Source: Girardia tigrina (lineage: Eukaryota). From it: DNA of 55,021 nt. The notes beneath the pieces are model-generated. The model was not told the origin of the DNA and did no database searches. It was given only the letters and a program-made list of their open reading frames with translations. Below are positions 37,283 to 39,410 of the stretch, one piece after another. The translations under genes were made by a program, and so were the position numbers. The DNA lies in NCBI GenBank assembly GCA_001938485.1, contig MQRK01234244.1, positions 1 to 55,021 on the forward strand, given 5' to 3'. Each line of letters opens with the position of its first letter. The first letter of the stretch is position 1.

Positions 37283-37905
37283 GTAGGTTCAATTATATTT
37301 TTATTATTTATTCTATGTATTTTTAAAATACAAATTTGAAGTTAATTATAAATTCTAAATGAATCACATCCTTCAATTGTGCATTAATAACGACTTTTAA
37401 TATATTGTCTTAAAGTATATTGAACCCATGGCTCATTCTAAGCTTTAAGTAGTGAGCATTCCGTAGAAAACATAATTTGATGCAAATGAAAATTATTTTC
37501 CATAACAAACAAGTTATAAATTGGTCGTTCTTATATCTGTTTTAAGAAATGGTTTTTTAATGTTTCAAAAGTTTTACTTTTAATAATGTCTTCGAAAGAA
37601 GTCAAATATCGAAGCGTTATTTGATTCTTATATATGAAAGTAGAAAAGCTAATAAAATATTCTATAATTTGAGTTGGTAACAAATTCTATAAATGATTAC
37701 TATGAAAAGATGATTCAACTATGTTTGAAATGGTCAAACATCTGTTTTTAATGAATATTATACGACGGGTCAAAAAACTTGCTGACCAAATACTTGAAAA
37801 TAATGACAACCAGAGAACTAACAATATCATTAAATGTCAGTGTAAAGTAGCGTTTATGCCGCTTTCAGCCCATGTCCTCACTTGACTTTTGAATTTGGAA
37901 GTGAT

Positions 37906-38304
37906 CCTCTCATCCTATAAGGTATTAAGCATGAGGCTTTTTAGGAGGTCTGAGACGCTTATGGCTTCAAAAGGCACTCCCCCCATGTAGGGATTTACAT
38001 GCCTAAGCTCCACCGGCGAACCGGCTTCATAAAACCCCTCCCCAAGATTAGAAACCTTGGATTATTGCGATGCAATCGACCGCGCGACTGCAGGGTCACT
38101 ACTTCTTACAGCCATGACACTCAGTTTTTGAAGCTGGGCCTTCAAGATATTGGTTTGCTAGTCCAATATCGATACATCGGCTGCCGACCTTTCAGACAGC
38201 AAATGGCTCAGCTCAGGACTCTTTCGCCTAGAGAAGAGAACTCTAGTTTCCGAGGGATATCGCGCGGAGGTACGTCAAATCTGGCCTTGCACCCATAGAT
38301 CCCT
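37906..38304 (-). mobile_element. Second short retroposon headed by a degenerate HDV-like ribozyme (38216-38304)
   Basis: Decayed TSD gaatttg(g/a)aagt(g/a)at at 37891-37905 and 38305-38319; P1 AGGGAU/AUCCCU, L3 UCCGCGC, P4 CUAGAG/CUCUAG, J4/2 GCGAAA; P2, P3 and P1.1 partly broken. Confidence 0.75.
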
Positions 38305-39410
38305 GAATTTGAAAGTAATTTTCCTTGAAGGATTTTGTTCGTCTATTTATCTTATTTGACCCAAAAAATACGCAATTTATGTAAAAACTTTGTTGTATCC
38401 TCATTAGATGATACTATATCTGTATTCAATTTTCTCTTCAATACACCTTATCTACACACTATGTTCTATCATAACATGATAAACTTAGCCTTTGCGTACC
38501 CTATGAGACAACTGTACTTAAAAGCATATCATGGTAACATATTTTTATTTTTTTAAAAAATTTTCCTCTATAGGTTTTTTTCAGTTATTTAAAGTTGAAT
38601 ATTTTAAAAATACAAAAAAAAGATTCTCTAAAATCAAAATATTATCCGGGACATTCGGTTAATGAAACCAAATAAATTATATTATTCTTTTTCTCCTTCA
38701 AACAAATGACAAAAAAGAATTTGTCTTAAATTTTATTTAATTTCTTTTTGCTGATTTTATGTAATATCTAATTTTATTTTATATTTTTTTTAATAAAATT
38801 AATTTATAAATTATAAATTAGTTCTTTTGAAATATATTCGAAGTTTTGAAAAAAAAATTGTTAAAGATTTAATAAATAATTTAATCAAATTTATTTTATT
38901 TCACATCAAAATAATAATGAAAGTAAATCGTTTCATAAGTTTTTCGATTAAAAAAAGTCTTTAATTAATTTTTGAAAATTACTTTCATCATTTTATTTTT
39001 AGTTCTTAAGATTTGTTTAATGAGCTTAAGGTGAATATTCTCTTTACATTTTATCCCTTTTTGATGAATCTTTATTCGATTTATCCGAACAGCTTCCTTT
39101 TGTTCTGCGGATAAAATTTCAACGCCTTTTGACAGAAATAGAAATTTAACAAAATTTACATATTTTAATTAGTTTTAATTTACGCATTTATTTTTCAACT
39201 GCAGAAAGACATTTAAATTATTCTACTATTTTTACTCATTTAGCTTATTTTCTAAGAGTTTTAATCATTTGATATTACAAGTATAATTTTTATATATTAT
39301 AATTATTAGCTTTCTTAGGTTCGCAAAAATTTTCTACCTAATCAATGTTTAAAAAGATATTAGGAATGTTAATAGGGTTTCGATAGCCAGTCACTCTTCC
39401 CGTAATGACC

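Follow-up and report, generated by a model that had tools for sequence, protein, structure and literature searches.

A decayed high-copy element with an HDV-like ribozyme head and a LINE-like tail in an SK channel intron of Girardia tigrina

The SK channel locus and its repeats

The DNA analysed here, referred to as the window, is a stretch of 55,021 nucleotides from Girardia tigrina (contig MQRK01234244.1). It consists of AT-rich animal DNA and carries an SK potassium-channel gene on the plus strand, of which five exons were found between 12976 and 44032 (Table 1). Thirteen of 16 SK relatives bear flatworm names, at an identity of only 33-55%. Two short elements, termed copy 1 and copy 2, are located in introns of this gene and are antisense to it. 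The same orientation was observed for all four non-LTR insertions examined in SK introns (19512-20032, 25350-25640, 33969-36558 and 37901-38304), a number too small for a bias to be called.

Several other repeats share the window. An RLE-type LINE lies on the minus strand within positions 1-7680, with a reverse transcriptase (RT) at 3308-900 and a weak Ulp1-protease match at 4684-4241, and is bracketed by 190-bp inverted repeats (1-190 and 7491-7680) that are 96% identical. A second RLE-type LINE on the minus strand (33969-36558) is broken and consists of an RT, a zinc knuckle and a nuclease-like end; no ribozyme head was detected in it, and it displayed no similarity to copy 1 or copy 2. That copy 2 might be the 5' UTR of this second element was ruled out, as two host exons lie between them. 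Two GC-rich islands (11660-11920 and 29340-29670), about 70% alike across about 250 nt, form a third short repeat family, in which a ribozyme core, a clear TSD and a protein match were looked for and not found. A broken Gypsy-like LTR retrotransposon (45603-51476), a related solo-LTR-like copy (9149-10057) and Tc1/mariner-like fragments (8512-8886, 23990-24307 and 41438-41917) were also seen.

Table 1. Features of the SK locus and of the elements discussed in the text (window coordinates).
Feature	Position	Strand	Basis
SK exons	12976-13410, 28624-28761, 36992-37105, 37155-37283	+	tblastn
Further SK exon	43965-44032	+	weak match (E = 0.003); AG/GT ends, fitting phase
Host SK intron with copy 2 in antisense (context only, outside the element)	37284-43964	+	
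Copy 2, short non-coding interspersed element, 404 bp	37901-38304	-	contig depth, contig ends at other loci
HDV-like ribozyme head of copy 2, decayed	38214-38304	-	pair counts, family majority letters
P1 of copy 2	38304-38299 / 38258-38253	-	AGGGAU/AUCCCU, 6/6 pairs
P4 hairpin of copy 2	38246-38241 / 38233-38228	-	CUAGAG/CUCUAG, 6/6 pairs, 7-nt loop
TSD copy, 3' side of copy 2	37891-37905	.	37891-37900 unambiguous; 37901-37905 also family 3' terminus
TSD copy, 5' side of copy 2	38305-38319	.	adjoins predicted cleavage site
3' tail of copy 2, similar to the ORF end with stop codon and the 3' UTR of an RTE-like LINE	37906-37949	-	alignment, descriptor, depth peak
Copy 1, 291 bp, member of a second family	25350-25640	-	intact head, TSD, 3' fold
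LINE fragment, decayed and truncated at its 5' end, with C-terminal C2H2 fingers, the end of the ORF and a 3' UTR	19512-20032	-	protein identity

Ribozyme heads of copy 1 and copy 2

Copy 2 has a GC content of 0.50 within AT-rich DNA and ends without a poly(A) or microsatellite tail. Its sense frames are broken by stop codons, with no stretch reaching 50 aa, and an antisense open frame of 114 aa had no Pfam match. Marks of a canonical SINE with a tRNA, 5S or 7SL head were not seen: a Pol III B box was found on neither strand with one mismatch allowed, the search returned no tRNA and no Rfam match, and the hammerhead core motif, taken as a test for retrozymes, was absent from both strands of copy 1 and copy 2. 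The head of copy 2 is predicted to be cut just before 38304. The predicted catalytic C is 38226, within the J4/2 sequence GCGAAA, and the L3 core reads UCCGCGC. P2, P3 and P1.1 are broken (5/8, 2/3 and 1/2 pairs), as the original prediction had stated. Judged by these pair counts, copy 2 is probably a decayed and inactive member of the HDV-like ribozymes; in R2 ribozymes, helix mismatches are reported to accompany loss of cleavage (PMC3774820). A relaxed HDV descriptor run over the window matched only the places of copy 1 and copy 2. Rfam, searched at E values up to 5, detected neither head and gave two chance-level matches elsewhere in the window, and pseudoknot-free folding provided no signal either for the heads (z = +2.1 for copy 2 and -0.19 for copy 1) or for the whole elements (z = -0.69 and -0.21).

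In copy 1, every pair of the head (25640-25542) is present. The element is flanked by a perfect 14-bp TSD (25336-25349 and 25641-25654), and its 3' end (25401-25350) folds into a three-way junction with a z-score of -3.13, equalled by one of 200 shuffles. Alignment of the two heads gave a local score of 62, reached by none of 200 shuffles (mean 13.9, maximum 21), which bears out the earlier claim that the head of copy 2 aligns with the ribozyme at 25542-25640. Identity amounts to 59 of 72 positions (82%), or 63 of 72 with the family majority letters described below. The P4 stem is the same in both copies at all six pairs, and its loop differs (7 nt in copy 2 versus 4 nt in copy 1), again as had been predicted. 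A compensatory change in P1 had also been proposed. This holds for pair 6, which is U-A in copy 2 and C-G in copy 1 and is altered on both sides. Pair 1 is A-U in copy 2 versus G-U in copy 1, but this A has its match in the base just past the other TSD copy, which gives a 16-nt repeat, so that the A-U pair at the cut site may be derived from the target; the safe two-sided change in P1 is therefore pair 6. Outside the heads, no sequence similarity was detected between the bodies (score 14, a value that all 200 shuffles attained). In sequence, the bodies are thus as unlike as had been claimed, although their 3' ends appear to share a secondary-structure layout.

The copy 2 family, its boundaries and its tail

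Contigs of two sequencing runs from one study, X1 and X2, were mapped on positions 37650-38550 at 80% likeness, giving 1801 (X1) and 1833 (X2) contigs, with none from two further runs (X3 and X4); X1 may be the source of the window itself. In X1, the summed depth was about 120 in the left flank versus 37,000-594,000 within the element. Compared to the flank contig, this corresponds to about 350-fold in the mid-body, 600-fold in the head and 4900-fold in the tail, a rough measure rather than a copy number. Read in this rough way, depth puts the family at hundreds to thousands of related loci. Depth in the tail exceeds that of the mid-body up to 12-fold, with a peak of 593,765 in bin 37929-37959 (X1), and depth drops about threefold 5' of 38114. 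Truncated and internally deleted variants are common in the family, and internal deletions of 34-123 nt were seen at no fewer than 15 joints (at least 15); an empty-site joint was not present among the joints listed. The family was recorded at many loci that differ in their flanks, with depth biased towards the 3' end, as insertion by TPRT would give; a TSD was seen at copy 2 only. One joint, from 38113 to 38237 at a depth of 974, belongs to an internally deleted variant retaining most of the head. Furthermore, 26 contigs of X2 match the last ~125 nt of the element and leave it at 38028 into unrelated sequence, and are candidates for a further family or a LINE sharing the tail.

A decayed 15-bp TSD at the cut site had been proposed for copy 2. 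The two repeats match at 13 of 15 positions and abut the predicted cut; an equally good 15-mer match within 900 nt occurred at 44 of 2520 random positions (~1.7%). Only 10 bp of the repeat are unambiguous, however, with 9 of 10 matching, and the other five (37901-37905, GTGAT) are shared with the element. They are carried by the family, as seen from two sets of loose contig ends (44 and 49 contigs), whose consensus covers 37901-37919 and past 37901 turns into differing AT-rich letters. Records 2, 9 and 10 end at 37901, records 2 and 9 looking like one locus, and records 8 and 16, which have unlike flanks, have their 5' ends at 38305 and 38304, the predicted cut site. Ends at this place lend indirect support to the predicted Mg2+-dependent self-cleavage before P1. 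The family ends in GAGGAUCAC, followed by unlike AT-rich flanks and not by a microsatellite tail. These contig ends delimit an element of 404 bp that overlaps the TSD by 5 nt, so that the 3' boundary implied earlier, 37906, has to be moved to 37901. Full-length copies have the 5' boundary in common; many copies are 5'-truncated or internally deleted. On the other side of the TSD, the last five bases of the element are matched at four of five positions (chance 0.0135), and the 5-nt overlap likely reflects priming microhomology between the RNA end and the target.

Majority letters of the family were read on the plus strand in both runs (X1/X2): C at 38260 (94/93%), 38252 (91/94%) and 38277 (99/98%), G at 38220 (86/82%) and A at 38225 (73/72%). 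The first four restore P3, P1.1 and P2. With majority letters, the head comprises 6/6 pairs in P1, 7/8 in P2, 3/3 in P3, 2/2 in P1.1 and 6/6 in P4 and keeps the nested double pseudoknot order, the restoration by a family consensus that had been put forward as a check. The majority J4/2 is GCUAAA (73/72%), the same as in copy 1. Of the five head changes among the majority letters listed, four repair a broken pair and one brings back the J4/2 letter of copy 1; the P2 pair 38278-38215 (U-U) is not restored among them, and P1 positions are absent from those listed. The restored P2 pair 38273-38220 is G-C versus A-U in copy 1. It is a second compensatory pair and could not come from contigs of the family of copy 1. 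By its majority letters, the family head is predicted to be intact and copy 2 to be a decayed member.

At the other end of copy 2, the tail (37949-37906) aligned with positions 19559-19512 of the LINE fragment at 34 of 44 letters (score 36), and majority letters raised this to 35 of 44 (score 40). The latter score was reached by none of 300 shuffles (maximum 34) and was the best of 138 window tiles, the next place scoring 31; with nhmmer, the last 90 nt of copy 2 gave a weak match at 19580-19527 (E = 0.22). The matching segment falls on the end of the LINE ORF and a short 3' UTR in the same strand sense and coincides with the depth peak of the family. The predicted tail layout consists of a 5-bp triloop hairpin, an AAUA linker, a second hairpin and a GAGG closing strand. 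With the majority letter at 37931 (98% in X1 and X2), the first hairpin is whole again; its outer pair is A-U in the family as against G-C in the LINE. A descriptor of this layout was written after viewing the three sequences, its first version finding copy 1 only. It finds copy 1, and copy 2 with the majority letter at 37931, against 0.08 matches per shuffled window. Without the outer stem, which is absent from the LINE at 19559-19512, it adds the LINE and one AT-rich chance site (0.32 per shuffled window). When the three tails were aligned with MAFFT, their structures did not come into register, the copy 1 tail had no sequence match within the window, and tblastn of the C-terminal peptides of LINE relatives against the element gave no significant match. 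A two-hairpin 3' layout shared by copy 1, copy 2 and the LINE is suggested by these comparisons.

The ORF piece of the LINE fragment is 69-73% identical to the C-termini of proteins P0019-P0021, which are single-ORF endonuclease-RT-C2H2 proteins. P0020 (1169 aa) combines Exo_endo_phos_2 and RVT_1 domains with C2H2 fingers at its C-terminus; an RNase H family was not detected up to E = 1, and relatives of P0020 map to 19957-19544. There is hardly space for an ORF1 on its contig of 4133 nt, though the contig may be cut. A phmmer search with the LINE fragment retrieved 14 proteins, the best of which were again RT-plus-C2H2 proteins, and no relatives of P0020 were found in viral or prokaryote contigs. 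Neither a TSD nor a microsatellite-like tail was found for 19512-20032. From the domain layout and sequence motifs, we take the P0020-type partner to be probably RTE-like. At about 80% sequence identity, the fragment is likely a relative of the mobilising partner and not necessarily the partner itself. The same endonuclease-RT-C2H2 layout as in P0020 is reported for RTE-2_OV (PMC9115989).

Scans for similar heads outside the window covered metagenome and viral contigs. An exact pattern for the head of the family matched nothing in metagenome contigs, and a looser head pattern matched nothing in viral contigs. The loosest pattern, a 22-letter core, returned 31 metagenome loci; the majority are chance matches within GC-rich DNA, and about a third had a P1 start 15-20 nt upstream. 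The P4 of the family occurred in none of the 31, so the identical P4 of copy 1 and copy 2 points to common ancestry within the lineage. At two loci from other organisms (L024 and L031), a head with a 6-bp P1 stands directly before an APE-endonuclease ORF that aligns with the N-terminus of P0020 (E = 1.5e-11 pairwise) and whose Atlas neighbours are eukaryotic endonuclease clusters. This position indicates that this head type does start APE-type LINEs. The L024 and L031 heads directly follow a (GT)n tract, and L015 is similar and decayed. Other loci differ in setting. One 2406-nt contig (L010/L011) carries two occurrences of the same minimal HDV-like head, separated by about 1213 nt and in near-identical context, a spacing that a tandem or circular unit would give, and the L004 head is similar. 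The same core type also occurs, as minimal HDV-like heads, in phage- or microbe-like DNA (L016:655-739 on the minus strand, L002 and L006/L013). In L016, tRNA-like sequences follow the head, a setting that we take to be theta-ribozyme-like.

Origin of the elements and their relation to known systems

The contig and sequence data directly support a multi-copy family with defined boundaries, a TSD at copy 2, restoration of the head helices by majority letters and likeness of the tail to an APE-RT-C2H2 LINE. Copy 2 can be regarded as a decayed copy of a high-copy 404-bp element with an HDV-like head and a LINE-like tail. This element probably arose from an RTE-like LINE by internal deletion, as a non-autonomous derivative mobilised in trans. 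For copy 1, a parallel origin from a second, related LINE family is likely. Descent from two related LINE families in this way is also the simplest account of the same head on different bodies, and the one that we consider probable. The original prediction had gone further and proposed subfamilies sharing a modular head. Two families with a homologous head were indeed recovered; a swapped module was not established.

On this derivative model, an intact copy would be transcribed within host RNA, a Pol III B box not having been found. The head would fold into the nested double pseudoknot and cut just before P1, which would create a fixed 5' end. A LINE protein would then bind the structured 3' end and nick AT-rich DNA, and reverse transcription would be primed where the last bases of the RNA pair with the target. 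Priming of this kind would account for the 5-nt overlap of TSD and element and for the missing tail repeat, and staggered nicking would create a TSD of 10-15 bp. Copy 2 would subsequently have decayed neutrally in its antisense position, from which intronic copies would be unable to cut host pre-mRNA. TSDs of RTE elements are mostly 7-15 bp according to PMC6007223, a length that fits the TSD of copy 2. The same source has RTE-related elements usually ending in short, microsatellite-like repeats; it is chiefly in lacking such a tail that the family departs from them.

The strongest rival is a modular exchange, in which one head recombined onto unrelated bodies and tails of different LINE partners, as in R2/R1 hybrid SIDEs, and produced a SINE-like class. 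An exchange is favoured by the 82% identity of the heads, which extends to the normally variable P4 stem while neither bodies nor tails align, and by the precedent described in PMC3414825. Both families nevertheless keep the layout of a head plus a two-hairpin tail, which is expected under common descent, and in PMC3414825 ribozymes of old lineages are reported to stay 72-90% alike while the rest diverges. The up to 12-fold deeper tail and the 26 X2 contigs leaving at 38028 would suit parts common to several families, but a depth gradient is also expected from 5' truncation and from LINE copies sharing the tail. Given the two-hairpin layout in both families and the RTE-like tail, two internal-deletion derivatives explain the data as well as a head swap, and we regard the swap as unlikely. 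A broader form of it appears equally doubtful, namely a tail-less class whose HDV-like head can be exchanged between different bodies and between RTE-like tails, and where the poly(A) or microsatellite tail gives way to a conserved 3' three-way junction together with 5-nt microhomology priming.

A different kind of partner, an RLE-type (R2/R4/NeSL-like) or Vingi/Ingi LINE with the tail match at 19559-19512 being incidental, is very unlikely. Two RLE-type LINEs are present within the window, HDV-like heads are reported for R2 and R4-lineage elements (PMC3774820), the family has no microsatellite tail and the nhmmer tail match is weak. Against this, neither RLE element matches either short element, the tail match lies on a LINE 3' terminus in the right orientation, at the depth peak and with a compensatory hairpin pair, and the two intervening host exons separate copy 2 from the RLE ORF at 36558-33969. 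That the heads are convergent or chance look-alikes, with copy 2 an unrelated repeat beside a fortuitous TSD, is highly improbable and disfavoured even though Rfam recognises neither head, the head of copy 2 folds no better than shuffles without pseudoknots and a 13/15 match is met at nearly 1.7% of random positions, because no shuffle reached the head alignment score, the listed majority changes restore pairs or the copy 1 J4/2 letter, and other copies end at the predicted cut site.

Understood as LINE derivatives, the two elements belong to an already described kind, ribozyme-headed non-autonomous LINE derivatives (PMC3414825, PMC4035085, PMC5786205). Non-autonomous LINEs of bipartite structure are described from RTE, Ingi, Vingi and R2 in PMC5786205, where ribozymes are predicted for several RTE families. 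The bipartite RTE derivatives named there (RTESINE1/2, WALLSI3, RTE-N2_Lch and Bov-A) are close to the copy 2 family. Compared to the RTESINE1/2 type, the copy 2 family lacks a microsatellite or poly(A) tail, and its 5' part is known by the ribozyme fold and not by a match to a parent. R2 SIDEs and R2/R1 hybrid SIDEs of Drosophila likewise join an HDV-like head to a LINE 3' end; in the account of PMC3414825, R2 SIDEs rely on cotranscription instead of a Pol III promoter, and the hybrids carry related heads on different tails with 14-bp TSDs. SIDEs are described there as rare and confined to 28S rDNA, whereas the copy 2 family is dispersed, high-copy and intronic with an APE-type tail. Copy 2 itself lies in an SK channel intron, and rRNA was found nowhere in the window.

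In trypanosomatids, NARTc, RIME and SIDER1/2 are reported to combine one conserved HDV-like head with several short families of different bodies genome-wide, and many of their copies have a broken P3 or P1.1, as has copy 2 (PMC4035085). They belong to the L1Tc/ingi clade of protists and their head also acts as promoter according to the same source, whereas the host of copy 2 is an animal. Au-like SINEs, which are RTE-related, have a 3' end in common with an RTE LINE, a conserved 3' hairpin with compensatory changes and TSDs of about 10-15 bp (PMC6007223). They start with a tRNA-derived Pol III head and end in repeat tails, in contrast to the ribozyme head of copy 2, which has neither a B box nor a repeat tail. 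A review (PMC6765202) mentions intergenic HDV-like copies, numbering in the hundreds, whose downstream sequence is conserved and whose upstream sequence differs. Our literature search, with Repbase, Dfam, subscription journals and supplements outside its scope, found no description of this family or of ribozyme-headed elements in planarians or flatworms; the family may already be catalogued in repeat databases.

If the head was swapped between partners, ribozymes would act like SINE heads across a whole animal genome. An exchangeable-head class, if real, would extend to a whole genome, and in high copy, what the R2/R1 hybrid SIDEs do within rDNA, and would comprise hundreds to thousands of natural variants of the ribozyme. 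As a derivative of an RTE-like LINE, the family is a high-copy animal addition to the short list of ribozyme-headed non-autonomous LINE derivatives, of modest value as the kind is known. Its many copies are a natural sample for covariation analysis of an HDV-like ribozyme with a 6-bp P1 that Rfam misses. Moreover, the family marks the minimal cis-elements that an RTE-like enzyme seems to need, a ribozyme head and a structured, repeat-less tail of about 50 nt, which are relevant to two-RNA retrotransposon gene-writing systems such as the RTE and Vingi platforms presented in PMC13708176.
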